Source of the DNA: an uncultured Bacteroidota bacterium
Lineage (GTDB): Bacteria > Bacteroidota > Bacteroidia > AKYH767-A > OLB10
NCBI GenBank assembly: GCA_903847585.1
Contig: CAINEC010000174.1
Coordinates: 11,518 to 75,517 of the forward strand
Direction of reading: 5' to 3'
Length of the DNA: 64,000 bases
Shown here one piece after another: positions 3,261-56,009 of this stretch. A program made the position numbers and the translations under genes. The first letter of the stretch is position 1; each line of letters begins with the position of its first letter. The notes under the pieces are model-generated. The model saw nothing but the letters and a program-made list of their open reading frames with translations. It was not told where the DNA came from and did no database searches.

Positions 3261-3263
3261 CTT

Positions 3264-5565: not shown

Positions 5566-5817
5566 TGATAACTCATAAACTGGTGGTGTAACGGTTTAGC
5601 GAAGCTAATGAATAATGCCTCGTCAAATAGCGGTTAATTAGAAGGGTAGTTCACAATAAAATGTTAACATTATCAGAGCAAGATAGAGGAATGCCACAAG
5701 TATTATAAAACCGATATTAAGTTATTATTCAGCTTGATTAGTTTACATAAACTTAATATTGCCTTAAATTAAAAATTGATTTAGACCTCGACTTTTGCAC
5801 CATCAATTCATTCTGTT

Positions 5818-6897
5818 ATGCGAATTATTATTCTGTTGATTTTAATGTTAGTTGGAAAATGTTCTATTGCTCAAAATGGACTAGAGGGAATAATCATTGA
5901 GAAGTACTATATTTCTGATGACGCAGATGCAAAAATCACGGATGGTGGCTATTTGAAGCCTGGCTCTGTGACTTATAGAATCTATGTTGATATGAAGCAG
6001 AAGTATAGTTTACAGGCTGTTTATGGAATTGGTGGCCATCCACTTAAGATAGCTACCACTACTTATTTTTTTAATAATACTATGAATGGAGGTGTTGTTG
6101 CCAATGATGTACCGAGATTTAGATTAGAAGAGCATACTACTATGCTTGATTCTTGGATATCAGTTGGTGCTGGATCAGAGGCAGATTATGGAATTCTGAA
6201 AACGAAAGATTCATATAATTCATTTACCAATAAGAATGGCATTTTAAAAAATAACAATCCAGAAGCGGGAATTCCGTTGACAAAATACGATGGATTACAA
6301 GCTGCAACTCCGCAACGGGTAGTTTCCTTTTATGGTATTGATAAAGCCGACTTAGAAATTTTTAATAATACAACCGATACAACTGCTAAAGGGCAGGTCT
6401 TTATGACTGAGAATGGTTCATGGGCTTCATTTGGAGGAGCCTATGGAACAGATTCTAATAATATAGTTTTGATTGCTCAGTTAACAACAGACGGGCAGCT
6501 ATCATTTGAATTAAATCTGCAGTTAGGAACCCCATTTGGAAGTACCGAAAATTATTACGCTAAGAATCCTCAGGGTTCTGAATTACAACTTCCTGATTTG
6601 ACTTATCCAGCGGTAAAAAATAGCGCTCCTGAAATAAAGTGGGTGGTAATTCCTAAGAATAAAAAAATAAAAAAATACGACCAACAAAAATTACAGTTTG
6701 TTGCGAGTGATAGTGACAATAACATCCGCAAGGTAGATTTATTTGTGAACGATCTTAAAATCACGGAATTGTTTGTTGCTCCATTTACGTTCAACTGGAA
6801 TCCACAAATGGACGGGAATGCTAAAGTTACCGCTGTGGTTTATGATTTTGCAGGAGCAAAAAGTAAAGCAGAGGAAATAACGTTTATCGTGCAATAA
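5818..6897 (+). CDS. Secreted protein, paralogue 1 of an unassigned N-terminal domain family, with a C-terminal Ig-like domain and no T9SS CTD
   Basis: Signal peptide MRIIILLILMLVGKCSIAQ. Shares the blocks EKYYISD, GSVTYRIYVDM, DSWISVGA, GILKTKD, NPEAGIPLT, NGSWASFGG and LIAQLTTDGQLSFELNLQLGTP with the products starting at 7056, 11277 and 15255. The C-terminus (ASDSDNNIRKVDLFVND...VTAVVYDFAGAKS) resembles the Ig repeats of the 15255 protein. Confidence 0.75.
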   Translation: MRIIILLILMLVGKCSIAQNGLEGIIIEKYYISDDADAKITDGGYLKPGSVTYRIYVDMKQKYSLQAVYGIGGHPLKIATTTYFFNNTMNGGVVANDVPRFRLEEHTTMLDSWISVGAGSEADYGILKTKDSYNSFTNKNGILKNNNPEAGIPLTKYDGLQAATPQRVVSFYGIDKADLEIFNNTTDTTAKGQVFMTENGSWASFGGAYGTDSNNIVLIAQLTTDGQLSFELNLQLGTPFGSTENYYAKNPQGSELQLPDLTYPAVKNSAPEIKWVVIPKNKKIKKYDQQKLQFVASDSDNNIRKVDLFVNDLKITELFVAPFTFNWNPQMDGNAKVTAVVYDFAGAKSKAEEITFIVQ

Positions 6898-7055
6898 TTA
6901 GCAACATTCCAATATTAATAAATTGTAAAGAATGATTGTTAACTTTTTGTAGCACTTAACCCAAACATAATATTTTGTTTCGTTTTTCATCATGTAAGGT
7001 TTGGAATTTTGGGGCTTGAAAACTTATACCTAACAAACCACTAAAAACAACCAAC

Positions 7056-8141
7056 ATGAAAAGAATTTACCTAATTGCATTATTGCTTATTACGGGCTTT
7101 GTTTCTAAAGCTCAAAACGGATTAGAAAATGTAGTAGTAGAAACCTATTATATTTCTGATGCCAACGATACTAATGCTAATCTTGATGGTGGAATTCTGC
7201 CAGTAGGTTCAGTGACTTACAGAATTTATGCAGATATGTTGCCAGGCTACAAGTTTCAGGCTGCTTATGGTGTACCAGGACATGATTTGAAAATTGCAAC
7301 AACTACTTTATTCTGGAATAATGAAGATCGTGGTTCAACATCTCCTACTTTTTCAAAAACAAATGCAGCAAGAAATACAGTTATGATCGATTCATGGTTA
7401 TCTGTTGGTGCTGCTTGCAATGGAAACTTCGGAATTATGAAATCAATGGATGATGGTTTAAATAATGCAGTAAATAACTATTCTCCACAAGTTTTACAAA
7501 ATAACGACCCTGCAATGGGAATTCCATTAACAGTTCAGGATGGATTTTTTGCAGGATTACCTGAGTCTGTAACTACAGTTGGAATTAGTACTGAAGTTGC
7601 TGTTTTTGATAACCTGAATGATGGGACTAATGGTCCATTATTTTTTACGAATAATGGTTCTTGGGCTTCTTTAAATGGTTCAACTGGTCCTGATCCAATA
7701 GATAATAAAGTATTAATCGCACAAATCACTACAAATGGTACTTTATCATTCGAATTAAACATTCAGATTGGTACTCCGACAGGTGGCGTAGAAAATTTTG
7801 TTGCTTCAAATCCTGTGGGAAGTGAAATTTCTATTCCTTCACTTACGTACACATCTCCAAGCATTGGTATTTACACTCCTTCATCAAAAAATGTTTCTTT
7901 CTCTGCTTTCCCTAATCCTGTAGAAAACAGTTTATTTATTAATACTGCAAATATTAAATCAGAAGAAGTTGTTTATTCTATTTATGACTTAACAGGAAAG
8001 ATGGTTGCTACTGGTTTGTTTGCTGTTAATGCTCAAAAGAATATTCAGCAAATTGAAGTAGACAAATTAAATACAGGACTTTACTTTATTGAGTTATCAG
8101 TAAACGGAACAAGTTCAACGCAAAAATTCATTAAAAAATAA
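7056..8141 (+). CDS. Secreted protein, paralogue 2 of the unassigned domain family, with a T9SS C-terminal sorting domain
   Basis: Signal peptide followed by QNGLENVVVETYYISD, GSVTYRIYADMLPGYKFQA, DSWLSVGA, NGSWASLNGSTGP and LIAQITTNGTLSFELNIQIGTPTGGVENF. The C-terminus FSAFPNPVENSLFIN...GLYFIELSVNG...QKFIKK is a typical Por/T9SS CTD. Confidence 0.8.
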   Translation: MKRIYLIALLLITGFVSKAQNGLENVVVETYYISDANDTNANLDGGILPVGSVTYRIYADMLPGYKFQAAYGVPGHDLKIATTTLFWNNEDRGSTSPTFSKTNAARNTVMIDSWLSVGAACNGNFGIMKSMDDGLNNAVNNYSPQVLQNNDPAMGIPLTVQDGFFAGLPESVTTVGISTEVAVFDNLNDGTNGPLFFTNNGSWASLNGSTGPDPIDNKVLIAQITTNGTLSFELNIQIGTPTGGVENFVASNPVGSEISIPSLTYTSPSIGIYTPSSKNVSFSAFPNPVENSLFINTANIKSEEVVYSIYDLTGKMVATGLFAVNAQKNIQQIEVDKLNTGLYFIELSVNGTSSTQKFIKK

Positions 8142-8161
8142 AAGCCCTTACGACTTCTAAT

Positions 8162-11100
8162 ATGAAGAAGCCAATACTACTACTAGTAATCTTAATTTCT
8201 TGTGTTGTTAGTTCATTCGGGCAAGGAACAGTTCGCGGAAAAATAATTGACACCAATGGTGAAACGCTCATAGGCGTAACCGTTATGTTAAAAAATAATC
8301 GTTCAGTAGGTACAAGTTCAGATTTCGATGGAAATTATTCCCTGACCTTTAAAGATGCAGGCCCTCAAGTTTTAGTGTTTACATATGTAAGTTATAAAAC
8401 ACAAGAAATTACTGTTAATCCGGAAGGAAAAGTAGTAGTGAAAGATATCATCATGGAATCGTCAGCACAGGAGTTAAAAGGTGTTGAAGTTTCTGCGAAA
8501 GCAACAAAAGCAAGAGAGTATTTTTCTGAAATGGTGAAGAAAAATGCTGCTGTTTCGATGGATTATATTTCTTCTGAAACAATGAAGAAAACAGGAGACG
8601 CAAATGTTGTTGCTGCTGTTTCTCGTGTGTCTGGTGTTTCTACGAATGGTGGTTTTATTACTGTTAGAGGTATTGGCGATAGATATGTGAAAACATCGGT
8701 AAATGGTTCTATGATTCCAACATTAGATCCGTTTACTAATAATATCAAATTAGATTTATTTCCTGCTAGTTTAATTGACAACGTTTTTATTACTAAAACG
8801 GCAAGCCCTGATTTACCTGGTGATTGGGCAGGAGCATTTTTATCGGTAGAAACGAAAGACTATCCTGATAATCTTGCTATTAATGTAGAAACTAGTTTCG
8901 GTTATAATAATCAATCTTCATTTAAAAATGTTGTTTCTTCTGACAGAAGTTCAACGGATTGGTTAGGATACGATGATGGATTTAGAAGTTATGATCACGC
9001 GTCGTTTGCTTTTGCAAATACAGAGCCTACTTTATTGCAAACATTTTCTGCTTTAGGATTAGGAGATTACTTTAGTTCTTTAGGTGTAACTTCAATTGAT
9101 CCTACTGAAGATATTTTTAATACTTATTATAAATTAGGATTAGTACAATTAGGTTTGTTGGCACCAGCATTATTTGATGATCCAACTGCCTTTAATCAAG
9201 CTAAAGATTTATTTAATGCTGGAGGGTACAAGTCTGATGCATTTAACTCAATTAATGCTAATGCACCGGCTTCTGCAAAGAGGTTCGCAAATAACTGGAA
9301 TACTACTACATGGAATGCTCCTTTAAACTTTTCTCAAAGTTTTAGTATTGGTAATCAGGTTAATTTATTTGGAAGACCTTTAGGTTTTATTGCAGGATTT
9401 AAATACGGATCAAGTGTAGTATATGATCCACAATCAGAAGTAGTACGTTGGGTATATGATGAATTAGAAGGTCAGAAAAGAACGGAAAATATTTCACAGC
9501 AGGCTAGTCGTGAAACAAATGGTTGGAGTGCACTTTTTAACGTGGCTTATAAATTAAATCCTAATAACAGTGTTTCCTTTTTATTCATGCCAAATTTAAC
9601 AGGTGTAAATAATGTGCGTAATTCTTTTGATAACTCTGAACCGCAACTTACTCGTATTACAAAGAGTCAGTTTTTTGAGCAGAGAAGTCAATTGGTTTAT
9701 CAATATAAATCGGAACATTATATACCAAAGTATAAATTAAAAATTGAAGCAAATGCTTCCTATACCAATGGTAACAGCCAGATTCCGGATTTCAAAAATA
9801 TACGTTACATCGAAAATATTGATGGCACATTTCAAATTGAAGGAACAACAGGATCAATTGCTCGTTTTTATCGTTATTTGAATGATGATTTTTTTGATTC
9901 AAGAATTTCTTTTGAATTACCTATTTCAAAAGATACCACTGGATTATCACGCAAATTGAAATTTGGTGGCGCATATCAACGAAACAATAAGGAGTATGAC
10001 CAGTATCAATACGATGTAAGAACAGAAAGAAGTACGTTTTCTGGTGACTTAAATTCATTCTTGGATAACTCATATTTTGATATTCAGACTATTGGTGGTG
10101 TTTCATCTTTCTCTACCTATTACAATAGTTCAGAGTATAGCAACTTTGGCCCTGTTAATCATACTTTTGGAAATACGTCAATATTCGCTGGGTATGTAAT
10201 GTCGGATTATGCCATTAATAAGAAATTACGTGTGTCAGGTGGGGTAAGATTAGAAAAGGCAGATTTTTATACGGATGTGGTCTTGTTCGATTCGTTGAAT
10301 TATGCACCAGATGATGATAGACGAGTTTATGATAACAGCTTGCCGATTGCAAATCCTGGAGAGTTAAACGAGTTGAGTGTTTTACCAAGTATTAACGTAG
10401 TTTATAAGCTTAAAGAAAAAGAAGGAGCGCCTACTAATATTCGTTTGAATTATAGTAGCTCTGTTGCTCGTCCAAGCATTCGTGAGTTATCCGACATCGC
10501 AGTTTTTGATTACGAATATCGTTTAGCCGTAATAGGTAATTCAGATTTGAAAATGGTGAATATTAATAACTATGATATCCGCTATGAAAAATATTATCCT
10601 TCAGGAAATGATTTTTCTGCAAGTATGTTTTTCAAGACATTTAAAAATCACATCGAATTAGTTAACTCAAATTTCATTACTTGGCAAAATGTAGATTATT
10701 CTACTGTTGTAGGTGCAGAGTTTGAAGGCAAAAGAAAACTAACTAAGAAATTAGAAGGCCGTACCAATATTACTTTTGTTAAATCAGCAACAGAGGTTGT
10801 ACAAAGTACTATTTACGTAAATAATGGAATTAAGAATTTTGTGCCAATTGATACGGTTAAGCGTTCTATGTTCGGACAAGCACCTTATATCTTTAATGCT
10901 ATTTTGACATATAATGAAGATAGCCTTGGTTTAAGTGTATCATTATCGTATAATGTTCAGGGGCCACGATTGGTATTATCAGTAGGGCAGACAGATGTTC
11001 CAGATATTTTTGAGTTGCCTAGAAATACTATTGATTTAAAAGTGTCTAAAAAATTGGGTAAACACTTTACCGTTAGTTTAACAGGACGCGATTTATTAAA

Positions 11101-11272
11101 TGCTCCAATTGCGAGAGCCTATAATTATAGTGATGGTTCGTACGAATCAGGACTAGGGAATAGCATAAACAAGTTGTTTGATTCTCCAATCTTTAGAAAA
11201 GATTGGAATCAATCCTACGATAAATTTCGTTTCGGTTCTAGTTTCCAGGTAGGTGTTTCTTATAAGATATAA
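8162..11272 (+). CDS. TonB-dependent outer-membrane receptor with an N-terminal CarboxypepD_reg domain
   Basis: 1036 aa with a signal peptide. GTVRGKIIDTNGETLIGVTVMLKN is the carboxypeptidase-regulatory-like fold. The plug region is SRVSGVSTNGGFITVRGIGDRYVKTSVNGSMIP, followed by a long beta-barrel with alternating-residue strands to the C-terminus. Confidence 0.9.
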   Translation: MKKPILLLVILISCVVSSFGQGTVRGKIIDTNGETLIGVTVMLKNNRSVGTSSDFDGNYSLTFKDAGPQVLVFTYVSYKTQEITVNPEGKVVVKDIIMESSAQELKGVEVSAKATKAREYFSEMVKKNAAVSMDYISSETMKKTGDANVVAAVSRVSGVSTNGGFITVRGIGDRYVKTSVNGSMIPTLDPFTNNIKLDLFPASLIDNVFITKTASPDLPGDWAGAFLSVETKDYPDNLAINVETSFGYNNQSSFKNVVSSDRSSTDWLGYDDGFRSYDHASFAFANTEPTLLQTFSALGLGDYFSSLGVTSIDPTEDIFNTYYKLGLVQLGLLAPALFDDPTAFNQAKDLFNAGGYKSDAFNSINANAPASAKRFANNWNTTTWNAPLNFSQSFSIGNQVNLFGRPLGFIAGFKYGSSVVYDPQSEVVRWVYDELEGQKRTENISQQASRETNGWSALFNVAYKLNPNNSVSFLFMPNLTGVNNVRNSFDNSEPQLTRITKSQFFEQRSQLVYQYKSEHYIPKYKLKIEANASYTNGNSQIPDFKNIRYIENIDGTFQIEGTTGSIARFYRYLNDDFFDSRISFELPISKDTTGLSRKLKFGGAYQRNNKEYDQYQYDVRTERSTFSGDLNSFLDNSYFDIQTIGGVSSFSTYYNSSEYSNFGPVNHTFGNTSIFAGYVMSDYAINKKLRVSGGVRLEKADFYTDVVLFDSLNYAPDDDRRVYDNSLPIANPGELNELSVLPSINVVYKLKEKEGAPTNIRLNYSSSVARPSIRELSDIAVFDYEYRLAVIGNSDLKMVNINNYDIRYEKYYPSGNDFSASMFFKTFKNHIELVNSNFITWQNVDYSTVVGAEFEGKRKLTKKLEGRTNITFVKSATEVVQSTIYVNNGIKNFVPIDTVKRSMFGQAPYIFNAILTYNEDSLGLSVSLSYNVQGPRLVLSVGQTDVPDIFELPRNTIDLKVSKKLGKHFTVSLTGRDLLNAPIARAYNYSDGSYESGLGNSINKLFDSPIFRKDWNQSYDKFRFGSSFQVGVSYKI

Positions 11273-11276
11273 TACA

Positions 11277-12587
11277 ATGAAAACGATAATTAAATTCATA
11301 GCTCTGTTTTTGTTTATTGGATTAAACACGCAGGCGCAAATTCAAAATGTAATAGTTGAAAAATACTATGTTGCTGATTCATTCGATATTGCTAATACCG
11401 ATGGTGGTCAGTTGCAACAAGGTGCGGTGACTTATCGCGTATATGTTGACTTAGAAAGTGGAAGTAAAATTTCACGCATTTTTGCTGATTCATTGCATTT
11501 GTTAAAATTTAAAAGCAGTCAGCCTTTTTTTAATAACGACACTCTAAGTACTTTTAATGGAGGTACCTACGGATTTAAAATCAATAGAAATGATTTAGCA
11601 ATCAATACCGTTGGTTTAGATAGTTGGATTAGTATCGGTGCAGCAACAAATAAACATCATGGTATTTTAAAAACAGAAGATACCGATGGTACTGAAGTAG
11701 GTGGGACGAACAATGATCAGAATTTATTAAGTAATACCGATCCAAGTGCAGGTATTCCTTTAACAACGCAAGATGGTTTGATTTTATCAAGTGTACTTGT
11801 ATCAAACTATTTAGTAGGTGGCGATTTTCCGGCTATTAATTCATTAAACGATTCAACTATATTTGGTAGTGATACTGCAACAGCATTTATAACTCCAAAT
11901 GCTACCTTGCAATTTAATGGTGGTATATTAGGACAAGGTCCATCAAACAATGTATTGGTTGGTCAATTTACTACAGCTGGTCAATTGGAGTTTGAATTAA
12001 ACATTACCGTTATTGATAGTACGGGAGCTACAATTAATTATGTTGCTTCTGGTAATGACACAGTTATTCAAAATTCAATTTATAAATCATTGCCATTATT
12101 AAAGTATCCACCACAATGCGGATGTTTAGATCCTAATTATATTGAATACAATGCTCAAAATGCTTGCAGCGATTCTTCTAAATGTTTAACGTTGGTGAAG
12201 CTAGGTTGTATGGATACACTTGCATGTAACTATGATGTTGATGCAAATTACTCTGTACCTGAAATGTGTTGTTATCCTGGATACTGCAACGATCGTGATA
12301 TTGCATTTGTTTGTCCAGATATTAATACAGGGAATCGTATTATGACGGTGTTTCCAAATCCTACCAATAGCGAGATTAATATCAATCTTGATGGTGTAAA
12401 AAATATTGGTGAGACACAATTTGTGTTGTTGAACTCATTCGGGAAAGAGATGATGAACTTTTCAGAAAACATTTCAGAAGGCGTTTGGACAAAAAACATT
12501 TCGCTTAACAATTTAGTTAGTGGAATCTATATTTTAAAAATGATTTCTAACGAAGAAGTTCAATCGCAGGTCATCATTAAAAATTAA
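11277..12587 (+). CDS. Secreted protein, paralogue 3 of the unassigned domain family, with a Cys-rich module and a T9SS CTD
   Basis: ATG at 11277 (MKTIIKFIALFLF...AQ signal peptide); the track start at 11253 is a GTG inside the receptor gene. Shared blocks EKYYVADS, GAVTYRVYVDL, DSWISIGA, GILKTEDTDG, DPSAGIPLTTQDG and FTTAGQLEFELNI. The CTD is VFPNPTNSEININ...GIYILKM. Confidence 0.8.
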   Translation: MKTIIKFIALFLFIGLNTQAQIQNVIVEKYYVADSFDIANTDGGQLQQGAVTYRVYVDLESGSKISRIFADSLHLLKFKSSQPFFNNDTLSTFNGGTYGFKINRNDLAINTVGLDSWISIGAATNKHHGILKTEDTDGTEVGGTNNDQNLLSNTDPSAGIPLTTQDGLILSSVLVSNYLVGGDFPAINSLNDSTIFGSDTATAFITPNATLQFNGGILGQGPSNNVLVGQFTTAGQLEFELNITVIDSTGATINYVASGNDTVIQNSIYKSLPLLKYPPQCGCLDPNYIEYNAQNACSDSSKCLTLVKLGCMDTLACNYDVDANYSVPEMCCYPGYCNDRDIAFVCPDINTGNRIMTVFPNPTNSEININLDGVKNIGETQFVLLNSFGKEMMNFSENISEGVWTKNISLNNLVSGIYILKMISNEEVQSQVIIKN

Positions 12588-12589
12588 AA

Positions 12590-13342
12590 ATGGAAACAAC
12601 GTTTATGAATTACTTTAAAAAATATTTCTATTTATTTCTATTACTTTTTGTCATCACCATTGGATTTACAGCTTGTGATGATGATGAAGTGACACCTGTA
12701 ATTGTTAATGAAACAGGTAGTGTTACGGATATAGAAGGTAACGTGTATAAAACAGTTAAGATTAACGGTAAATGGTGGATGGCCGAAAATTTAAAAGTGA
12801 AAACTTTTAATGACGGAACATCCATTAACAATGGCCAAACAGATTTTAGCTGGAAGGATTCATTACCTGCTTATTGCTTGTATAATAATTTAGGAACTGC
12901 ACCAGGATTATTGTATAATTCATATGCTGTATTAAGTGCCAAAGGATTGGCTCCTCAAGGATGGCATATTGCAACCGATGAAGAATGGAAGGCCTTAGAA
13001 CAATCGCAGGGAATGTCTGCTGCAACAGCTAATTCATTTGGATGGAGAGGAAGTGATGAGGCTCAGAAATTAAAAATTGAAGGAGCTAAAGGATGGGTGC
13101 GTTATTTAGACCTATGGCCTACTAATGAGTCTGGTTTTTCAGCAAGTGCGGGTAGCTGCCGTTTGCCAAATGGTGTTTTTGGTGATCCTGGTTTAATGCA
13201 TACGGGATTTTGGTGGACAACAACAGCAGATAATGTAAGTGGTGAACTTTTGTATCGTTACATGGATTATAAGAAGACAAGTATTCTGCGATCGCACAGC
13301 GAAAATGGTTACGGATTCAGTGTTCGATGTGTCAAAGATTAA
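12590..13342 (+). CDS. FISUMP (Fibrobacter succinogenes major paralogous domain) lipoprotein
   Basis: Lipobox ITIGFTAC. Hallmark sequence TDIEGNVYKTVKINGKWWMAENLKV...GWHIATDEEW...GFWWTTT...GFSVRCVKD. Confidence 0.85.
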   Translation: METTFMNYFKKYFYLFLLLFVITIGFTACDDDEVTPVIVNETGSVTDIEGNVYKTVKINGKWWMAENLKVKTFNDGTSINNGQTDFSWKDSLPAYCLYNNLGTAPGLLYNSYAVLSAKGLAPQGWHIATDEEWKALEQSQGMSAATANSFGWRGSDEAQKLKIEGAKGWVRYLDLWPTNESGFSASAGSCRLPNGVFGDPGLMHTGFWWTTTADNVSGELLYRYMDYKKTSILRSHSENGYGFSVRCVKD

Positions 13343-13360
13343 ATCAAAAAAATCATAAAG

Positions 13361-13386
13361 AAGAGGCCCTTAGGGGCCTCTTTTAT
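13361..13386 (+). terminator. Rho-independent terminator after the FISUMP gene
   Basis: aagaggccc-ttag-gggcctctt perfect stem followed by a T-tract, 19 nt after the stop codon. Confidence 0.8.
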
Positions 13387-13536
13387 TTTAATGTTAACAG
13401 AATGTATTTTCAAAGTAAATGTCTTAACATTAAAGTGCTTTAAAGGTAAAGATTTCATAAGTTATTTTTTCAGTTAAATTTTTGTTGGCGTTCTACTTTT
13501 GGTGCAGGAAAAATAAAAAACCAAAATTATAAACCA

Positions 13537-15213
13537 ATGAAAAAATTAATTACAAGAATTGCATTAGCAGCATCGGCTGTATTTGCATTGGCAACAACAT
13601 CGTTTGCCCAAACAAATTTAGGAGCAGATTGCGGATGTCCATCTGTATCTAACCGTACTACAACTGTTTTATTATCATCTCTAGCTACCGTAGGTGGTAC
13701 TGATGATGGTAACTTAACAGATTCTATCACTATCCTTGATTGTTCAAAATTGTACATCTTGGATAAGAAAATTTATGTGCCTAATGGAAAATCGTTAATT
13801 ATTAACCCAGGTGTTGTTGTTAAAGCTCGCTCTTATTCTACTGCCGATTCAGCTGTTGCATTAACAGTTTCAAGAGGAGGTAAAATTTTCGCTAATGGAA
13901 CTGAATCATGTCAGATCGTATTTACTGCTGAAGCAGATCCAATGGATGGAACTTATGCATTATCAAACAAAGGAAAATGGGGTGGTATTGCTATCGCTGG
14001 TAAAGCAACAAACAACTTAAAGTTATCTCCAAACGGTCCTTTCTCTGTTGGTGTTGCTGGTAAAATTTGTGTTGCTGATGGATTAGGAACTTTCGAAGGT
14101 TTCAACTCAACTAACTACAAAGATCAATTTGGTGCTAATTTAACAGCAGGTGAAACTTTTAATGATAATGATAACTCAGGTATCATGACTTATGTTTCTA
14201 TCCGTCACTCAGGAGCTATCCTAGTTTTAGGTGGTGAGTTAAATGGTCTTTCTTTAGGTTCAGTAGGTCGTGGAACAACAATCGATCATATCGAGATTGT
14301 TTCTTGCGCTGATGATGCAATTGAAATGTTTGGTGGAACTGTAAACGTAAAGCACTATACTACATTATTTAACAATGATGATATGTATGATTATGATTTA
14401 GGATATACAGGAAAGGGTCAATTCATTTTTGGTATCTATGCTTCTGATACTACAGTTAGTGCTGATGCTGATAACGCTTTCGAAATGGATTCTGATGATC
14501 AAAAATCAAACTTACTTCCTCGTTCACATCCTGTTGTTTACAATGCTACAATGATTGGTAACAATAAGAAAACATTATCTGCTGATAATTCAGGTTTATC
14601 TGTTTTCCAAGCAAAAGAATTAGCTGAAGGTGAGTTTTACAATTCAGTTTTTGCAAACTTCCGTTATGGTTTAAATTTAATTAAGTCTGTTGGTACAAGA
14701 ACAGGTGGTTTCGAAGCATACCATAACTGGGCTAATACAGGTGGTAATTCAACTAACAGCTTAAAAATTAAGTGTAATGCATTTGTTGGTATAACAAAAG
14801 ATATCGCTATCGATAAAAATGCTGCTACAGCAGTTTCTGCTACTGACTCTGCACAATTCTTTACTACTGACTTAAATACAAGCTTTGCGTCATTACCAGG
14901 ATTCGTTCCAACATGGGCTGCAAACTTTACTACTAACACTGTTACTACAAAGTTTGATGCAGTTCCAAATCCACAAATCACCAACGCTGCAGGATGTCCT
15001 ACACCAGCAGCTGATGGTTTCTTCACTCCAGTAACTTACAAAGGTGCATTCCCTGCTACAGGTAAAAACTGGTTATCAAACTGGGCTTACGCTCAACTAC
15101 TTAACGTTACTACAGGATTACAGCCATGTGCTACTGATTGTAATGCTGATGGTATTACAAACAACGTTGACTTCTTACAATTATTAGGACAATTCAATCA
15201 GTCTTGTCAATAA
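13537..15213 (+). CDS. Secreted protein with beta-helix-like repeats and a C-terminal dockerin-like Ca-loop motif; function unknown
   Basis: Signal peptide MKKLITRIALAASAVFALATTSFAQ. Repetitive G/N/T-rich rungs (NATMIGN, YNSVFANF) and acidic motifs DDAIEMFGGTVN and DNAFEMDSDD. The tail is CATDCNADGITNNVDFLQLLGQFNQSC. Confidence 0.6.
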   Translation: MKKLITRIALAASAVFALATTSFAQTNLGADCGCPSVSNRTTTVLLSSLATVGGTDDGNLTDSITILDCSKLYILDKKIYVPNGKSLIINPGVVVKARSYSTADSAVALTVSRGGKIFANGTESCQIVFTAEADPMDGTYALSNKGKWGGIAIAGKATNNLKLSPNGPFSVGVAGKICVADGLGTFEGFNSTNYKDQFGANLTAGETFNDNDNSGIMTYVSIRHSGAILVLGGELNGLSLGSVGRGTTIDHIEIVSCADDAIEMFGGTVNVKHYTTLFNNDDMYDYDLGYTGKGQFIFGIYASDTTVSADADNAFEMDSDDQKSNLLPRSHPVVYNATMIGNNKKTLSADNSGLSVFQAKELAEGEFYNSVFANFRYGLNLIKSVGTRTGGFEAYHNWANTGGNSTNSLKIKCNAFVGITKDIAIDKNAATAVSATDSAQFFTTDLNTSFASLPGFVPTWAANFTTNTVTTKFDAVPNPQITNAAGCPTPAADGFFTPVTYKGAFPATGKNWLSNWAYAQLLNVTTGLQPCATDCNADGITNNVDFLQLLGQFNQSCQ

Positions 15214-15254
15214 GCAATTAGTACAATTAATAATTATTATTAGAAATTTATTTT

Positions 15255-18200
15255 ATGAAAAAAATATTTAGTTTAATATTCGTTTTATCTGCATTGTTTG
15301 TTAGCAAATCGAATGCACAAAATGGATTAGAAAACGTAATCATCGAAAAGTATTACGTTTCTAACGCAGCAGATTCAGCTGCTAGCGCTACTGCAGCTGG
15401 TGGTAACTTACCTGTTGGTTCTGTAACTTACCGTATCTATGCTGATATGTTACCTGGTTATAAATTCCAGGCATTATATGGTGTTGCTGCACATCCTTTA
15501 ACAATTTCTTCTAGTACAACTTTCTTCAACGAAGAAAACTTTGGTGGAACTAGTCCTAATGGTATCTCTGCAAATAACAACAGAAGAAATGCTGTTATGT
15601 TAGATTCTTGGTTCTCAGTAGGAGCTTCAAGTGCTGGTAAAATGGGTGTATTAAAAACAGAAGATACTGATGGTTCAGTAGGTAACGCAAACAGTGTTTT
15701 AGCAAATGCTGATCCTTCTGCCGGAATCGCTATCTCTATTCAAGACGGACAAGTTGTTGCTACTCCTCAAGCAGTAACGTTTGTAGGTATTAATAACACA
15801 GGTAATGGTGACTTAGGAATTTTTGATGCAACTTCTGGCGTAGGTGGTTCATTCACTACATCAAATGGTTCTATCGCATCATTAAATGGTTCAACTGGTC
15901 CAACTGCAACTAACCGTGTATTAATTGGTCAGTTTACTACTAATGGTATCTTCACTTATGCATTAAACATTCAGGTAGGTACTCCTACAGGTGGTGTTCA
16001 AAATTTCGTTTCTTCAAATCCAACAGGGGCTGAAATTACGATTGCAAGTTTATCAGGAACTGTAGGTGCACCAAATGCATTACCAGCTGTATCATTTACT
16101 TCTCCTACTAATGGAGCAAGCTTTATTACAGGTTCATCAATCAGTTTAGAAGCTAATGCAACTGATGCTGATGGTACAATTACTCAAGTTGAATTCAAAG
16201 TTGATGGTGTTTCTGTAGGTGTTGATGCTACTGCTCCTTATACTGCATCTTATACAGGTGTTATTGGAACTCGTACATTAACTGCAACTGCTACAGATGA
16301 TCAAGGTGGTGTTACAACTGCTACAATCACTATCACAGTTTCTGCTAATCCCGCTCCAACTTGTACAATTACAGCTCCAACAAATGGTGCTAGTTTAATT
16401 ACAGGTGATGTAGTAAGTATCACTGCTAATGCAACAGATAATGGTTCTGTTACTCAAGTAGAATTCTTCGTTGACGGTGTATCTATTGGTACTGATGCTA
16501 CTTCTCCTTATGCTGCATCATGGACAGCTGTATTAGGTTCTCATTCTATTACTGCTGTTGCAACTGATGACCAAGCTGCAACAACAACTTCTACAGCAGT
16601 AGGTGTTAGCGTATTAAACAACGTTCCTCCTTCATGTTCAATTACTGCTCCTTCAGCTGGTGCTTTATATACAGCTCCTGCTGCAGTTAATATTACAGCA
16701 ACTGCAACTGACGGTGACGGATCAATCGCTAGCGTTGGTTTCTATGTAAATAACGTTTTAGTTGGAACAGATAACACTTCTCCTTATTCATTCTCTTGGA
16801 CAAGCGTAATCGGAAATGCTTCATTAACAGTTAAAGCAACTGACGATCGTGGTGCTATCACTACTTCTTCTGCAGTAGCTATTAGTATTGCTGATCCAAA
16901 TGCATTGCCGTATAATGTTCAATCTACAGTGGCGTCTTGTACTGAGACTACCGTTTGTATTCCAGTTATTGCATTCGATACAGTTGCTAACGTAATTGGA
17001 TATGATGTAGTAATGAACTACGACAAGACTAAATTAACTCCAACGGGAAATATCACAGTTGGTAGCGACTTAATCAACCCTTCTTTTGTAACGGCTATTA
17101 ACAGCATCGATACAACAAATAGCAAGATTACGATCGCTTTATTTTTAAACTCTGCAGCTCCTGCATCTACTAAGTTTACAGGTGTTGGTAATGTGTTCTG
17201 TGTTGAGTTCAACAAAACTGCAACATTTACTTCAACAGATGTAACAACTGTTTCTGTTTCAACATTACAAGAAAGTTATTTCAATGGTGTAACAGGAAAG
17301 TTAGTTCAATCAGGAACCTATCAAGCATTCAAAGATTCTGCTTACTCTGGTAAGTTAGCATTCTGGTCAAACAACTCGCCTATTAAGTACAACGCAGCTA
17401 ATCCTAATCAGTATTTAGCAACAACAATCAATGGTAACAATGCAAACTGTAATTTACCATCTTCAACTGTTACTAATCCTGATACATTAGGTAATTTCAG
17501 TTACAATGTAAATGATGGTGTTAACATTAACATCAATAAGGATATCCCTGCAACAACGGATATGCAACCAGTTATCAATGGATTCGATGCATTAAGAGCT
17601 CGTCAGGTATTATTAAATGACTTAACGTTCGTTCCTAATGTTTATCAAATCATTGCTATGGATGTTAACCAGGATGGAGTTGTATCTGCTGGTGACGTTT
17701 CTCAGATCAACCAACGTACAGTATTATTAATTGGTGAGTTCCGTCAAGCATGGAACTATAACGCGCAAGGTGTATCAAACGGACAGTTATCTAAAGACTG
17801 GAGTTTCGTTGATTCTGCAACGGTAGCTACAAATGCTGCATTTACAATCTCTGCAACTTATCCAAGTAATGATGGAGTAGGTTTCTCTAAATTTAAAGTT
17901 CCAGTATTGTCATTCTGTTCTCCAGTAAACGCAGTTACTTCTACTGCTTGTCCTACAATTTCAACAATGACTTACAAAGGAATTTTAATTGGTGATATCG
18001 ATGGAAACTATGCTACTGTTAATCCTAACACAGCATTCCGTTCATCTGAAAAAGTTACAATGGATTTATCAAAAGCTACAGTAGAAAATGGTTACATCAA
18101 TGTGCCAGTATTAATTTCTTCTACGCAAGATGTTAATTCATTAGACTTCGCTTTACAATTCAATACTTCTGCAATGTCATTCAATACAGTTGTTGATAGA

Positions 18201-18659
18201 ACAAACACAATGGAAACATTGTCGAACTTCAACAATGATGATCAAACTTTACGTTTCACTTCTAACAGCTTGACAAACTACGCTTTGAACGCTCAGATTT
18301 TAAATGTGAAATTTGCTATCGGAAGTCATGAAGTTTCTGCTAACGATTTCAACGCAGTTGCTGCTTACATCAATGGTGAGCGTGTAGCTTTCGAAGTTGC
18401 TAACGGACAAATTTCAGGAGCTGGTGCTATTGTTAATGTTTATCCTAACCCTGCAACTGATATGATTAATGTAGTTGTAAGTGAAGATGCAACAGTACAA
18501 TTAGTAGACGTATCTGGTCGTCAGGTAATTTATCAAACAAATGTATTAGCTAACGAAGCTGCTTCAATCAGCACTGCTTCTATTGCTAATGGCGTTTACT
18601 TGATGAAAGTTTACAATGGAACTAATGTTTCTGTAAAGAAAGTTGTTGTAAACAAATAA
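15255..18659 (+). CDS. Large multidomain secreted protein, paralogue 4: unassigned N-domain, 3 Ig-like repeats, cohesin-like, dockerin-like, cohesin-like, T9SS CTD
   Basis: 1134 aa. The N-terminus is QNGLENVIIEKYYVSN...GSVTYRIYADMLPGYKFQA...DSWFSVGA...VLIGQFTTNG. The cohesin-like block is VIGYDVVMNYDKTKLTP, the dockerin-like loop is MDVNQDGVVSAGDVSQINQRTVLL, and the CTD is VNVYPNPATDMINV...GVYLMKVYNG...VVVNK. Confidence 0.8.
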   Translation: MKKIFSLIFVLSALFVSKSNAQNGLENVIIEKYYVSNAADSAASATAAGGNLPVGSVTYRIYADMLPGYKFQALYGVAAHPLTISSSTTFFNEENFGGTSPNGISANNNRRNAVMLDSWFSVGASSAGKMGVLKTEDTDGSVGNANSVLANADPSAGIAISIQDGQVVATPQAVTFVGINNTGNGDLGIFDATSGVGGSFTTSNGSIASLNGSTGPTATNRVLIGQFTTNGIFTYALNIQVGTPTGGVQNFVSSNPTGAEITIASLSGTVGAPNALPAVSFTSPTNGASFITGSSISLEANATDADGTITQVEFKVDGVSVGVDATAPYTASYTGVIGTRTLTATATDDQGGVTTATITITVSANPAPTCTITAPTNGASLITGDVVSITANATDNGSVTQVEFFVDGVSIGTDATSPYAASWTAVLGSHSITAVATDDQAATTTSTAVGVSVLNNVPPSCSITAPSAGALYTAPAAVNITATATDGDGSIASVGFYVNNVLVGTDNTSPYSFSWTSVIGNASLTVKATDDRGAITTSSAVAISIADPNALPYNVQSTVASCTETTVCIPVIAFDTVANVIGYDVVMNYDKTKLTPTGNITVGSDLINPSFVTAINSIDTTNSKITIALFLNSAAPASTKFTGVGNVFCVEFNKTATFTSTDVTTVSVSTLQESYFNGVTGKLVQSGTYQAFKDSAYSGKLAFWSNNSPIKYNAANPNQYLATTINGNNANCNLPSSTVTNPDTLGNFSYNVNDGVNININKDIPATTDMQPVINGFDALRARQVLLNDLTFVPNVYQIIAMDVNQDGVVSAGDVSQINQRTVLLIGEFRQAWNYNAQGVSNGQLSKDWSFVDSATVATNAAFTISATYPSNDGVGFSKFKVPVLSFCSPVNAVTSTACPTISTMTYKGILIGDIDGNYATVNPNTAFRSSEKVTMDLSKATVENGYINVPVLISSTQDVNSLDFALQFNTSAMSFNTVVDRTNTMETLSNFNNDDQTLRFTSNSLTNYALNAQILNVKFAIGSHEVSANDFNAVAAYINGERVAFEVANGQISGAGAIVNVYPNPATDMINVVVSEDATVQLVDVSGRQVIYQTNVLANEAASISTASIANGVYLMKVYNGTNVSVKKVVVNK
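16076..16900 (+). repeat. Three tandem ~92-aa Ig-like (Big_7-type) coding repeats inside the 15255 gene
   Basis: The units begin ALPAVSFTSPTNGASFITG, NPAPTCTITAPTNGASLITG and NVPPSCSITAPSAGALYTA. Each contains ATD..G.(I/V)..V.F.V(D/N)..(S/L)(V/I)G.D...PY. and a T(A/V).ATDD.(G/A) block. Confidence 0.8.
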
Positions 18660-18674
18660 TAATTTTCTAATCTT

Positions 18675-18711
18675 AAAAGGTCGGTTCAAGTTTTTTGAAC
18701 CGACCTTTTTT
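18675..18711 (+). terminator. Rho-independent terminator after the 15255 gene
   Basis: ggtcggttcaa-gtttt-ttgaaccgacc perfect 11-bp stem flanked by an upstream A-run and a downstream T6 run. Confidence 0.85.
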
Positions 18712-18736
18712 ATAACTAGAATAAACTAATAAACCA

Positions 18737-19474
18737 ATGATGAAAAAATTACTAATACTATTATTTATTTTCTTTTCATGTAATGTTATGGCTCAAGAAA
18801 ATAAATCAACTGCTGCTCCTGAGCAAATGGATGTGCAAACAATAGACGCTTTAGATAGCGTAATTTTTGATTGCTCCCAATTAACTGGAGTAAGTGGACC
18901 AATACAAATTCCTGTTTCAATTAAATCGGATGATTTAGTTTATTCGGTAGATTTTTCATTGAAGTATGATCATGCAGCTTTGCAATATGATACTACAGTT
19001 AATGTGACAACTTACTTATCAGGATTATCTAATTACTTTACAATCGATTCTACCATTCGTTTTACATCGAGTACGTTTACTCCATGTACAAACGATACAA
19101 CACTGGCATTAATTAAATTTATACTGTTAGCGCCATCGTTTAATAATGGAAGTATTTTTACGTTAAAAGGCTACTTAAATGGTACACTTTGTAGTGTTAA
19201 GTATATACCACCTTCACCGGTTGGACTAACAGAAAATACTATTGAGAATTTTAGTATTTATCCAAATCCAGCAAATGATGCAGTAACAATAAACTTCAAA
19301 AATTCCACAGCATTAAGCGTGGTTAATTTATTCGGACAAACTATTTATTCAGAAAATATTGAAGGTTTATCTTCAACTATGTTGAATACTTCGGAATATG
19401 CGAATGGCGTTTACTTTATTAAAGTAGACACAAATAAAGGAAGCGGGATACAAAAAGTAATTGTATCACATTAA
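18737..19474 (+). CDS. Secreted cohesin-like domain protein with a T9SS CTD
   Basis: Signal peptide. IQIPVSIKSDDLVYSVDFSLKYDHAALQYD...IRFTSSTF parallels the second cohesin-like module of the 15255 product (LDFALQFNTSAMSFN...LRFTSNSL). The CTD is FSIYPNPANDAVTINF...GVYFIKVDT...IVSH. Confidence 0.7.
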   Translation: MMKKLLILLFIFFSCNVMAQENKSTAAPEQMDVQTIDALDSVIFDCSQLTGVSGPIQIPVSIKSDDLVYSVDFSLKYDHAALQYDTTVNVTTYLSGLSNYFTIDSTIRFTSSTFTPCTNDTTLALIKFILLAPSFNNGSIFTLKGYLNGTLCSVKYIPPSPVGLTENTIENFSIYPNPANDAVTINFKNSTALSVVNLFGQTIYSENIEGLSSTMLNTSEYANGVYFIKVDTNKGSGIQKVIVSH

Positions 19475-19476
19475 AA

Positions 19477-20865
19477 TTAATACTCTTCTTCTGAAACAGA
19501 CATTGCTTCTTGTAGTGTCTGTTTTTGTTTTTCAGCTTCTTTGTATTGTCGGATAAATTCACTGTACCAGTAGCCAGAACTTTTAATTGTTCTTTTCTGA
19601 TTTTTATAATTCACGTGTACAATTCCAAAGCGTGGTGCATAGCCTTCCGACCATTCAAAATTATCAAGCAACGACCAAACAAAATAACCATTCACCTTCA
19701 TTCCTTCTTCTTTCGCTCTAAGTAGTTGCTGAACGTAGGATTTTAAATATTCTACTCTTCTTACATCATTCACTTCACCATCAGGAAGTACTTCATCTTT
19801 AAAAGCAGCACCGTTTTCGGTCACATATATTTCTGAAATATGACGATAGGAATTAAACTTCTTTATCATTTCATATAACGACTCTGGATAAATTTCCCAG
19901 TTCATTATTGTGCGATCTACATTTCTGCTTTTAGCATCTATTATTTTAGCTTTTAAAACAGGTTGAAGAAAATTATGCTTTACTACTTCGCGCGTATAAT
20001 TTTGGACACCGATAAAATCTGGACAGGCTTTGATTAATTTATTATCTCCTGGCAACATATATTTTTCTAGTCGCGATAAAAAAGGAAGATCATGAATAGG
20101 ATATCCATATCCCAATAATGGCTCAACAAATAATCTATTTATTAGTGCATCCACTTTATTACTTGCAATAATATCATTTTCATTATTAGGATTGTTAGGC
20201 GATATATGTGAGCAGGAAAATGTAGTACCCACGTGAGCATCTTTTACATTTTCTTTTAGTGTTTTAATTCCTTGTGCTTGACAGATTGCGGTATGATGTA
20301 ATGCAGGGAAGTAATTGCTTTCTCCTTTTCTACCTGGCGCATGAACACCTAAATAATATCCTGCACCTGTAAATACAACAGGTTCATTCAATACCATCCA
20401 GTTCTTTACGCGATCACCTAATTTTTTTGCAACAACTTCGGTGTAGTTGTTAAACCAACTTATAATATCGCGATTTGTCCAGCCACCTTTAAGTTCTAAT
20501 GCATGTGGCAAATCCCAATGATATAATGTGATCCAAGGAGTGATATCATTTTCTAAACATTCATCCACCAAACGATCGTAAAAACTAATTCCTTTGTGAT
20601 TAATGAAACCTTCTCCAAACGGAATTACTCTAGGCCATGAAATAGAAAATCGGAAATTGGGTATTCCTAATTGTTTTAAAAGTTGGATATCGTTTTTGTA
20701 TTGATAAAAAAAGTCACAGGCATGATCACCTTTATGATTATTCTGAATTTTATTTTTTCGTTTACAAAACTCATCCCATATAGATGCTCTCTTTCCATCA
20801 GCATATTTTCCACCTTCAATCTGGTAAGCGGAGGTAGCAACCCCCCAAACAAATTCATCTCTCAT
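19477..20865 (-). CDS. Glycoside hydrolase family 1 beta-glucosidase, no signal peptide (cytoplasmic)
   Basis: N-terminus FVWGVATSAYQIEGG, acid/base motif VLNEPVV, nucleophile motif YVTENGAAF, and C-terminal WSLLDNFEW. Confidence 0.9.
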   Translation of the reverse strand: MRDEFVWGVATSAYQIEGGKYADGKRASIWDEFCKRKNKIQNNHKGDHACDFFYQYKNDIQLLKQLGIPNFRFSISWPRVIPFGEGFINHKGISFYDRLVDECLENDITPWITLYHWDLPHALELKGGWTNRDIISWFNNYTEVVAKKLGDRVKNWMVLNEPVVFTGAGYYLGVHAPGRKGESNYFPALHHTAICQAQGIKTLKENVKDAHVGTTFSCSHISPNNPNNENDIIASNKVDALINRLFVEPLLGYGYPIHDLPFLSRLEKYMLPGDNKLIKACPDFIGVQNYTREVVKHNFLQPVLKAKIIDAKSRNVDRTIMNWEIYPESLYEMIKKFNSYRHISEIYVTENGAAFKDEVLPDGEVNDVRRVEYLKSYVQQLLRAKEEGMKVNGYFVWSLLDNFEWSEGYAPRFGIVHVNYKNQKRTIKSSGYWYSEFIRQYKEAEKQKQTLQEAMSVSEEEY

Positions 20866-20867
20866 CG

Positions 20868-21935
20868 TTAAGCTGTTTCTAATTGTTCTCCAGCAACTAG
20901 CCTTCTTAAGAAGCTGGTATCACGTTTAACGGTATGATTTAATTTTTCAAATGCATGCTTTTTAATGATTAAGTCGATAAGTTCTTCGGTGTTATCTTTA
21001 TAGTCGACTTTCACGGGCTTTGAATTGGCAATCCAATCAGATACGAGATCAATATTTTTCTTTTTTAAATTCTTTAAAACATGTACTCCCATCGATTTTA
21101 AAACAGCAGCATTACAATGTTGCTCAAATTGATTTTTCATCGGAATAACAAGCAACTTCTTTTTTAGGAATAAAGCTTCCGATGTAGTTCCAAATCCTGC
21201 ATTAGTAATAACACCATTGCATGTTGCTAAGCTTTCTATAAATGGCTCGCTCTTTAAAGGGAAGACGGTAAAGTTCCCTTTCTTGTAAGCAACTTTTGTA
21301 TGTTTACTAAAGATTTGAAATGGAACCGTTGAGGCGTACTTCAATTTTTCAATTATATACTTATCATCAAACGCTGGAAGATAAACAGTAATATGATTAA
21401 GAGTTTTTCTTTCAGCATTTCTTATAGCTTGTCGTATGATAGGAGTAGCTACTGTTTTATCAAAACTAATGAAATGAAATCCATAAGCATGACTAACGGG
21501 AGCGTATTTACGTAAAACTAATTTGCCGATTGGATCAGTAAACTTTGGTTGAGCTGCTTTTGGATGCAAGGCTGCAGCTTGATTGCTTAATCCTATGCAC
21601 GGCTTATTTTTTAGTTTCGCGGCCCAGCAAGAGATAGGTTCAAAATCGCTTATTATTAAATCGTAATCTTCAACGGGAAGCGATTTAATTTCACGAAGTA
21701 ACTTTTTGGTATCAAGATTTAAATACGTTTTTGTGAAATCAATTCCACCTTTTTTTCCAAAAGCAAATCCAAGTCCGTTGAATTTATATTTTATTTCGAA
21801 AGGCAAATCTAGTTCCCACTGTGAAGAACTAACGAGAATATCTACCTCACCTTTCTTTTTTAAAATTGGAATAATCTCTAGTGCTCTGCTGATATGTCCG
21901 TTGCCAGTACCTTGTATCGCGTATAATATTTTCAT
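20868..21935 (-). CDS. Glycosyltransferase (MJ1255/TIGR00661-like, GT28-related fold)
   Basis: N-terminus MKILYAIQGTGNGHISRA and C-terminal GVITNAGFGTTSEAL, characteristic of this GT-B family. There is a 4-nt overlap with the upstream gene. Confidence 0.7.
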   Translation of the reverse strand: MKILYAIQGTGNGHISRALEIIPILKKKGEVDILVSSSQWELDLPFEIKYKFNGLGFAFGKKGGIDFTKTYLNLDTKKLLREIKSLPVEDYDLIISDFEPISCWAAKLKNKPCIGLSNQAAALHPKAAQPKFTDPIGKLVLRKYAPVSHAYGFHFISFDKTVATPIIRQAIRNAERKTLNHITVYLPAFDDKYIIEKLKYASTVPFQIFSKHTKVAYKKGNFTVFPLKSEPFIESLATCNGVITNAGFGTTSEALFLKKKLLVIPMKNQFEQHCNAAVLKSMGVHVLKNLKKKNIDLVSDWIANSKPVKVDYKDNTEELIDLIIKKHAFEKLNHTVKRDTSFLRRLVAGEQLETA

Positions 21936-23822: not shown

Positions 23823-23823
23823 C

Positions 23824-25098: not shown

Positions 25099-25123
25099 AA
25101 TTTATTTCTCTATCACTTATTAA

Positions 25124-55974: not shown

Positions 55975-56009
55975 GAAAAAAATAATAAAACAAACAAACT
56001 AACATAATT

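Follow-up and report, generated by a model that had tools for sequence, protein, structure and literature searches.

The stretch of DNA considered here, referred to as the window, comprises 64,000 nucleotides (nt) of contig CAINEC010000174.1 from an uncultured Bacteroidota bacterium and has a G+C content of 34%. Between positions 5818 and 19474, its forward strand carries eight genes around a TonB-dependent receptor, which probably constitute a conserved and co-regulated locus for acquisition at the outer membrane. Four secreted proteins encoded there share one N-terminal domain, called the head in the following. The gene for the first of them, H1 (5818–6897), encodes a signal peptide, a head (5875–6603) and one immunoglobulin (Ig)-like Big_7 domain, and lacks a type IX secretion system (T9SS) sorting domain. 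H2 (7056–8141) consists of a signal peptide, a head (7116–7856) and a type A T9SS sorting domain. The receptor gene (8162–11272) specifies 1036 residues with a CarboxypepD_reg-like N-terminal domain, a Plug and a barrel. It is followed by H3 (11277–12587), with a signal peptide, a head (11337–12110), a module containing 12 cysteines and a T9SS sorting domain, and by the gene for a FISUMP lipoprotein (12590–13342; PF09603), in which the lipobox cysteine is followed by DDDE. The next gene, BH558 (13537–15213), encodes a right-handed beta-helix protein of 558 residues (PF28492, Beta_helix_4) with a signal peptide of the SPI type, no sorting domain and a half-dockerin-like calcium-binding loop at the C-terminus. 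H4 (15255–18659) is the most elaborate of the four head genes, with a head (15321–16064), three Big_7 domains, a cohesin-like module, a putative dockerin, a second cohesin-like module and a T9SS sorting domain. The last gene, COH245 (18737–19474), encodes a signal peptide, a cohesin-like module and a T9SS sorting domain.

The eight forward-strand reading frames were already delimited in the same way by the initial annotation of this region, which had been made from the letters alone, and are confirmed here. For H3, the longest open reading frame (ORF) begins at GTG 11253, and the ATG at 11277 yields a proper signal peptide; this start codon lies 5 nt past the receptor stop. The spacing is tight (8141 to 8162, 11272 to 11277 and 12587 to 12590), and the genes for H2, the receptor, H3 and the FISUMP protein are probably translationally coupled. 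The three terminator-delimited blocks proposed initially are real. Strong hairpins followed by T-runs occur within the locus only at 13359–13384, between the two main transcription units and readable on both strands, at 18675–18709 on the forward strand after H4 (a 15-bp stem, −21.7 kcal/mol, z = −7) and at 19493–19525, where the end of the locus shares its hairpin with a convergent glycoside hydrolase family 1 (GH1) gene.

The four heads can be aligned across approximately 250–270 residues with pairwise identities of 39–58% and 55 invariant columns, and even the most distant pair is related with a BLASTP E-value of 1e-47. The common N-terminal domain of about 250 residues described in the initial annotation is therefore a solid observation. 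The motif blocks listed with it are present as well, although several are exact in just two or three of the four paralogues; the block given as G[IV]LKTED, for example, also occurs as GILKTKD and GIMKSMD. No match to the head was found in Pfam-A or NCBIfam. Neither a single-sequence search nor a profile of the head paralogues (best E = 0.27) found a PDB sequence, and in a newer precomputed Pfam set, which does contain PF28492, the head homologues carry only the sorting domain PF18962. The structure of the H2 head was then modelled with AlphaFold2 from 37 sequences. The model has a mean predicted local distance difference test (pLDDT) score of 89.6 and a predicted template-modelling (pTM) score of 0.91, and is composed mostly of beta-strands with three short helices. 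Foldseek returned no PDB chain at E ≤ 1e-3 (best query template-modelling (TM) score 0.29) and nothing from BFVD. The PDB neighbours below this threshold are sandwiches of the Ig-like, adhesin or cohesin type (UafA, Als, Flo, YcnI and cohesin). Whether the head might be a divergent cohesin was examined and answered in the negative: hhalign against the cohesin module of the locus itself gave a probability of 0.2%. A confident profile or structural match to a characterised family within a described TonB-linked system had been named beforehand as a result that would speak against the initial proposal, and none was found. The head is a candidate new Pfam family with no structural relative detectable in the PDB.

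This family is large. A HMMER search of 1.84 billion representative sequences yielded 1,334 clusters at 50% identity, of which 550 matched at E ≤ 1e-30. The head usually starts at about residue 21 and is N-terminal in most members, and some proteins contain two to four copies. In 53 longer head proteins that were scanned, together with six unusual ones that were examined closely, the fusion partners were T9SS sorting domains (43 of the 53), Big_7, Ig_7, PKD, SprB, TSP3, EF-hand, DUF4982 and MAM; no catalytic domain fused to the head was found among them. The N-terminal position and the variety of partners bear out the earlier description of the head as a portable module. In public databases the head proteins are named "hypothetical". 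Close relatives that share a 90%-identity cluster with H4 go by the names "chitodextrinase" or "GH8 protein"; no GH domain is detectable in them, and the labels most likely reflect the Ig-like repeats. A protein with four tandem heads (P0241 of locus L088, 1036 residues) may not be genuine and adds little. It lies on a 6.5-kb contig, flanked by a gene for 273 residues and a 69-residue sorting-domain fragment, and could be the product of an assembly or frameshift error that joined several neighbouring head genes. No description of the head family or of this locus was found in the searchable literature.

The receptor contains a Plug domain (PF07715, 38.3 bits against a cut-off of 23.9), a CarbopepD_reg_2 domain and a TonB-box-like segment. 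Its barrel is closest to TIGR01782, which it resembles in two stretches between residues 572 and 987 (142.4 bits); this score remains below the cut-off of 310, so that the receptor is similar to this family without being a member. TIGR01782 is a Xanthomonas/Caulobacter receptor subfamily linked to carbohydrate scavenging. Orthologues and paralogues of the receptor carry PF00593 in the precomputed Pfam set. With the SusC/RagA model TIGR04056, the receptor scores 69.9 bits against a cut-off of 368.25, and only residues 23–162, which reach from the N-terminal domain into the beginning of the plug, can be aligned. It is a generic TonB-dependent receptor and does not belong to the SusC family. Among the eight proteins, no SusD-like match to Pfam or NCBIfam was obtained at E ≤ 0.1, and the gene set of the orthologous loci is the same. 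The absence of a SusD partner and the distinctness from SusC, both noted initially, are thus upheld, as is the identity of the FISUMP lipoprotein downstream, which matches PF09603 with 129 bits (cut-off 33.9) and TIGR02145 with 81.3 bits (cut-off 41.65). In all FISUMP orthologues examined, the lipobox cysteine is followed by acidic residues (CDDDE, CKKEE, CEEDD and similar). This acidic stretch resembles the surface-export signal of Bacteroidota lipoproteins, and the FISUMP protein is predicted to be a surface-exposed lipoprotein. Literature searches for FISUMP proteins in combination with TonB receptors, or for a combination of T9SS, cohesin and TonB, returned nothing.

The conservation of this arrangement was surveyed in one genome per GTDB species, where 476 relatives were confirmed; the best 80 matches, representing 78 loci, were compared, and metagenome contigs were added. 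All of the best 80 matches are metagenome-assembled genomes (MAGs) of uncultured Bacteroidota from lakes, rivers, groundwater and activated sludge. When the window proteins were searched against all ORFs of these loci, the order H2, receptor, H3, FISUMP, BH558, H4, with H1 in front where present, was recovered in essentially every locus that was long enough, at identities to the window of 43%–94% for the receptor and 41%–88% for BH558. Orthologues of COH245 follow H4 in L075 and L081, and independent contigs with precomputed Pfam assignments display the same order with COH245 after H4. Linkage of the head to the receptor, FISUMP and cohesin-like genes is therefore strongly conserved; its absence in related genomes was the second outcome that had been named in advance as contrary to the proposal.

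BH558 has no match in a Pfam release that lacks the PF28492 model. The precomputed Pfam set assigns this family to all 120 listed homologues with 60–96% identity to BH558, and also to the orthologue in L001. More than 2,500 homologues exist, none of which has a functional name, and nothing on PF28492 was found in the literature. The mature N-terminus (QTNLGxxCGCP) is invariant. Further invariant features are acidic ladders on successive coils (DDNDNSG, ADDxxE, GNDDxFDWDD, DADNGFExDxDDQKSN, SDNSG and AKELTEGE), an RSHP motif and certain arginine, histidine and lysine residues. At the C-terminus, a segment flanked by cysteines, C-PTD(I/L)NxDGxTNNxDFLxLLxxFNxxC, is invariant in 38 homologues, and its only similarity in Pfam is to the second half of the dockerin family PF00404 (E = 0.052, one repeat). 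The AlphaFold2 model is a right-handed beta-helix (pLDDT 79, pTM 0.84). Its PDB neighbours in Foldseek, all below significance, include chondroitinase B and alginate lyases of polysaccharide lyase (PL) family 6, a PL3 pectate lyase, GH28 enzymes, tailspikes, the adhesin PfbA and NosD. No specific lyase or hydrolase family could be assigned, since both this comparison and a profile search of the PDB returned the generic beta-helix superfamily only.

Two loci of the GTDB survey (L029 and L052) contain a second, divergent pair of beta-helix and receptor genes, and the beta-helix paralogue in L029 has a T9SS sorting domain. The family of this paralogue has more than 4,100 matches, nearly all of which combine Beta_helix_4 with PF18962. 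In five of five contexts looked up, the tagged beta-helix gene lies directly upstream of a gene for a CarboxypepD_reg receptor of about 1000 residues. These pairs, on which nothing was found in the literature, are two-gene units amid unrelated housekeeping genes; their beta-helix proteins are 31–36% and their receptors 26–33% identical to those of the locus. In L084, head genes and a BH558 orthologue occur without a receptor of their own, divergent to a beta-helix and receptor pair. Since tagged beta-helix paralogues are paired with receptors elsewhere, the beta-helix and receptor would be the general core, and the heads and the FISUMP protein an added layer. Judged by gene content, the locus appears to be an elaborated form of this module, in which the sorting domain of BH558 would have been exchanged for a dockerin-like tail. 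The sorting domain of the tagged paralogues occupies the same place as the C-terminal calcium loop of BH558, which looks like an exchange of localisation modules.

The C-termini of the head proteins differ as the initial annotation stated: Big_7 in H1, a sorting domain in H2, the 12-cysteine module with a sorting domain in H3, and Big_7, cohesin-like, dockerin and cohesin-like modules with a sorting domain in H4. The type A sorting domain (PF18962/TIGR04183) was detected in H2, H3, H4 and COH245 with 37–58 bits, for which the cut-off is 27. H1 and BH558 gave no match to type A, B or C sorting domains at E ≤ 0.1. This distribution is kept by position. A sorting domain is attached to the head in the H2 position in 71 of 74 loci and to that in the H3 position in 61 of 62, whereas heads of the H1 class, the second gene upstream of the receptor, lack it in 47 of 51 loci and have ordinary SPI signal peptides; the BH558 position is devoid of it in 48 of 50. 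It follows that not all heads can be displayed through T9SS. The cohesin and dockerin assignments are of a different quality. COH245 scores 23.8 bits with the cohesin family PF00963 at full length and 25.1 bits as an isolated domain (cut-off 24.1); of 14 modules homologous to it, eight match PF00963 (best E = 1.3e-7), and a profile search of the PDB finds the cohesin 2xdh at E = 0.02. The second cohesin-like module of H4 (residues ~930–1050) is homologous to that of COH245 (E = 3e-15). The first (residues ~545–760) is weak, with weak matches to PF00963 in three of nine members. The putative dockerin of H4 (PF00404, residues 773–820; cut-off 22.9) reaches 22.6 bits at full length and 23.9 bits when the segment is scored by itself.

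A shared, putatively regulatory sequence was found in front of both main transcription units. The palindrome AATGTTAACATT at 5660–5671, about 150 nt upstream of H1, is one copy of a TTAACAT box, and an inverted pair of these boxes (ATGTTAA ... TTAACAT) spans 13391–13430 (13391–13398 and 13424–13430), 115–150 nt upstream of BH558. In many loci (L003 to L082), the box recurs about 115–160 nt upstream of the first head gene and likewise of BH558. Of the orthologous intergenic regions upstream of BH558, 34 of 51 contain it, as do 32 of 80 regions upstream of the first head gene. Its density is 2.2–2.8 per kb, 6–8 times the background of 0.35 per kb, and the other 7-mers of highest frequency are all homopolymeric. 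Three of five stand-alone beta-helix and receptor pairs also have it upstream.

A two-component regulator was considered as a conserved neighbour and discarded, because an OmpR-type regulator is adjacent in just some 8–10 of 80 loci and a pair of a Y_Y_Y kinase and a LytTR regulator recurs only in L084. Individual cases are nevertheless on record. A response regulator of the OmpR/PhoB type lies beside the head locus in L081 (1640–2329), L028 and L067. In L083 (7042–7731 and 12951–13640), a 65%-identical response regulator stands beside a stand-alone beta-helix and receptor pair; the regulator in L082 (13187–13861) is more divergent (37–39% identical). In the window, some 8 kb downstream of the locus (27477–31138 and 32838–33680), a Y_Y_Y/Reg_prop histidine kinase occurs with a LytTR response regulator, and a small protein with a T9SS sorting domain comes next. 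A similar pair adjoins the beta-helix and receptor genes in L084; the flanks of other loci are too short to be compared.

Taken together, the architecture of these genes suggests a capture and uptake system that is assembled through T9SS, operates without SusD and probably serves a polymeric ligand, such as a glycan. A probability of roughly 0.45 is given to this reading. H2, H3, H4 and COH245 would be exported and anchored via T9SS, alongside the FISUMP protein as a surface lipoprotein. The head may be the ligand-binding tip, and because it forms the mature N-terminus, it would be kept at a distance from the cell surface by the stalks that T9SS anchors. The heads and the lectin-like FISUMP lipoprotein could concentrate an extracellular ligand, most likely a polymer such as a glycan, at the transporter, and BH558, with its acidic ladders and invariant arginine, histidine and lysine, may bind or cleave it. 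H1 and BH558, which have no sorting domains, might act in the periplasm on the imported ligand; alternatively, they could dock to the cohesin-like modules of H4 and COH245 via dockerin-like elements. The core of such a system would be the beta-helix and transporter pair, with the heads, the FISUMP protein and the cohesin protein as a clade-specific elaboration. Several features favour a polymer, probably a glycan: the type of the receptor, a lipoprotein that resembles lectins, modules of the cohesin, dockerin and Ig kinds, and a fold akin to that of lyases. The initial proposal of a T9SS-displayed capture apparatus feeding a TonB transporter is hence only partly retained. Architecture, conserved linkage and the absence of SusD agree with it; the H1 class, which lacks the sorting domain in most loci, does not, and capture and feeding are suggested by gene architecture alone.

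Several points weigh against this polymer-capture reading. In none of the eight genes could a catalytic family be detected, whether a carbohydrate-active enzyme, a peptidase, a phosphatase or another. Neither the locus nor the stand-alone pairs include an inner-membrane transporter, a periplasmic catabolic enzyme or a dedicated regulator, unlike a typical polysaccharide utilisation locus (PUL), and no ligand can be named. The locations proposed for H1 and BH558 follow only from absent known sorting signals, the putative cohesins and dockerins sit at or around the Pfam cut-offs, and none of the matches to the predicted beta-helix fold of BH558 reaches significance (best E = 2e-3, TM about 0.3). 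Furthermore, all homologues come from uncultured MAGs.

A bolder version of the proposal can be formulated, although it is unlikely to hold in full. According to it, the locus would represent a new class of SusD-independent uptake machine built on the beta-helix and TonB core, in which T9SS cargo captures the ligand through a novel fold. The head would operate on both sides of the outer membrane, with H2–H4 outside and H1 in the periplasm, and BH558 would be recruited by a contact of the cohesin–dockerin type or would hitch-hike during export on cohesin-bearing T9SS cargo.

Since catabolic genes are absent downstream, a relay for a small nutrient or a metal has to be regarded as a serious rival of polymer capture, even if it is an unlikely one. 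The heads and the acid-rich BH558 would then bind a cation, a cofactor or a small molecule and pass it to the transporter, for which no catabolic genes are needed. This would explain why the full locus and the stand-alone pairs contain envelope proteins only, with neither catabolic genes nor an inner-membrane transporter. The invariant acidic ladders of BH558 (DDNDNSG, GNDDxFDWDD and DADNGFExDxDDQ) together with its EF-hand-like loop, and the invariant tyrosine, histidine, arginine, lysine and aspartate residues of the head, are also consistent with such a role. Multiprotein extracellular relays that feed TonB transporters are known in Bacteroidota (PMC13616437), and T9SS mutants of Cytophaga hutchinsonii have defects in calcium and magnesium assimilation (PMC8564354), although the latter is a loose lead only. 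However, no riboswitch or other Rfam element was found at the gathering threshold anywhere in the window, and no Fur-like box was found upstream of the genes; Pho-like boxes are not enriched. The receptor is of the long CarboxypepD_reg type (about 1000 residues), which is typical of importers of oligomers and not of siderophore or haem receptors, and polymer capture is the more usual setting for cohesin, dockerin, Ig stalk and lectin-like modules.

It is improbable that the head is instead an enzyme of a new fold, a hydrolase or lyase of which the locus would encode four isoenzymes, supplying the receptor with a product that it can transport. About 30 residues, including glutamate, aspartate, histidine, lysine and arginine, are invariant among paralogues that are only 39% identical, and no known fold matches the head in such a way as to exclude catalysis. 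The layout of the head proteins also resembles that usual for T9SS enzymes, in which an N-terminal catalytic domain is followed by an Ig domain and a sorting domain. Against an enzyme speak the tandem arrays of two to four heads in single proteins, the fusion solely to adhesion-type or stalk modules, and the weak structural neighbours of the head, which are adhesin, cohesin or Ig-like sandwiches and not enzymes.

The genes on either side of the locus raise a further question. Upstream, the reverse strand (134–5565) encodes a Wzy protein, three sulfotransferases and a Wzx flippase. Downstream, also on the reverse strand (19477–26688), follow genes for GH1, a glycosyltransferase, a metallophosphoesterase and CysQ-like, CysN, CysD-like and CysC proteins, the last four of which concern the supply of 3'-phosphoadenosine 5'-phosphosulfate (PAPS). 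The surroundings look like a gene set for making a sulfated polysaccharide. Of 51 related loci, 15 also have a divergent Wzx gene (identities down to 41%) with two to four sulfotransferase genes directly upstream of the head genes, and it is possible that the link consists in an anionic surface polymer for the anchoring of T9SS cargo. An adhesive or structural role of the locus tied to this polymer of the cell itself, in which a sulfated capsule or O-antigen-like polymer, possibly the T9SS anchor, would be bound or arranged by the heads and the barrel would be an anchor or recycling pore, is very doubtful: the sulfotransferase synteny, the PAPS-supply genes and the adhesin-like architectures of the head proteins speak for it, but this synteny is missing in 36 of 51 loci and may be merely an inherited gene order, a normal Plug and a TonB-box-like segment imply active import, and the beta-helix and receptor pairs are found amid unrelated housekeeping genes. 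The GH1 gene next to the locus is encoded on the opposite strand, and its presence is not conserved along with it. The pair of Glyco_trans_1_3 and Metallophos genes that adjoins the head locus (20868–22792, reverse strand) also adjoins the beta-helix and receptor pair in L086 (12654–14479), which may be retained synteny. At the far end of the window, an ORF of at least 2,670 codons on the forward strand (55989–64000) begins with a signal-peptide-like segment and runs off the window end. It accounts for the higher G+C content there (0.39–0.40) and for the absence of listed ORFs, and its product is probably a giant surface protein.

Nutrient capture at the outer membrane of Bacteroidota is understood almost entirely through SusCD, and the pipelines for the detection of PULs key on the SusC/D pair. 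Both the locus and the stand-alone beta-helix and receptor pairs are invisible to such pipelines, and yet they occur in hundreds of species-level genomes of Bacteroidota that are abundant in freshwater and activated sludge. If this is a true uptake system, it would provide a second coupling of T9SS cargo to TonB transport and a new binding fold, as well as an unaccounted route for the uptake of organic matter or micronutrients in lakes and wastewater plants. The head as a candidate Pfam family and a testable functional partner for PF28492 are further products of the analysis.

Among the closest known systems are the SusCD PULs, or utilisomes, of Bacteroides with SusC, the SusD lid and glycan-binding lipoproteins of the SusE/F type. 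Common to both are a CarboxypepD_reg transporter of about 1000 residues, genes for binding proteins directly around it, operon-like packing and a surface lipoprotein directly downstream. In contrast to these PULs, the locus has no SusD, its receptor fails TIGR04056 and its binding proteins are mostly T9SS cargo and not lipoproteins. Searches of Pfam and NCBIfam also found no glycoside hydrolase, PL or carbohydrate esterase family, regulator or inner-membrane transporter within 5818–19474. The SusC/D pair is the hallmark of PULs that is used for PULDB (PMC13543919), and as this hallmark is not present, the locus is not a PUL.

A second relationship is to polymer utilisation through T9SS, as with ChiA and a SusCD-like pair in Flavobacterium johnsoniae or cellulose in Cytophaga hutchinsonii, where proteins with sorting domains likewise act extracellularly together with outer-membrane transporters. 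These known systems secrete recognisable enzymes, and F. johnsoniae keeps a SusD-like partner; the locus differs from them in that its cargo consists of a domain of no described family and in that SusD is missing. The cohesin-like modules of H4 and COH245, the putative dockerin of H4 and the half-dockerin-like loop of BH558 recall cohesin–dockerin assemblies, both cellulosomal and non-cellulosomal. As differences, the scores lie at the Pfam thresholds, BH558 has a single repeat, the pairing is putative and the anchor is a T9SS sorting domain instead of an SLH domain or a sortase signal. The uptake of haem by HmuY–HmuR and of cobamides by BtuG/BtuH–BtuB in Bacteroides resembles the locus in that a TonB transporter gene is accompanied by genes for several extracellular binders, with neither SusD nor catabolic genes; the locus departs from both in its binders, which have no sequence or fold similarity to theirs, in the absence of a riboswitch and in its receptor type. 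Finally, the stand-alone pairs of Beta_helix_4 and receptor genes are adjacent and paralogous to those of the locus, and differ from it by carrying the sorting domain on the beta-helix protein and by having no head, FISUMP or cohesin genes. In kind, then, the locus is a variant of a known theme, a TonB transporter with dedicated surface capture proteins, and it is the parts that differ: SusD is absent, the capture proteins are T9SS cargo, and the domain that they share has no detectable structural relative in the PDB.

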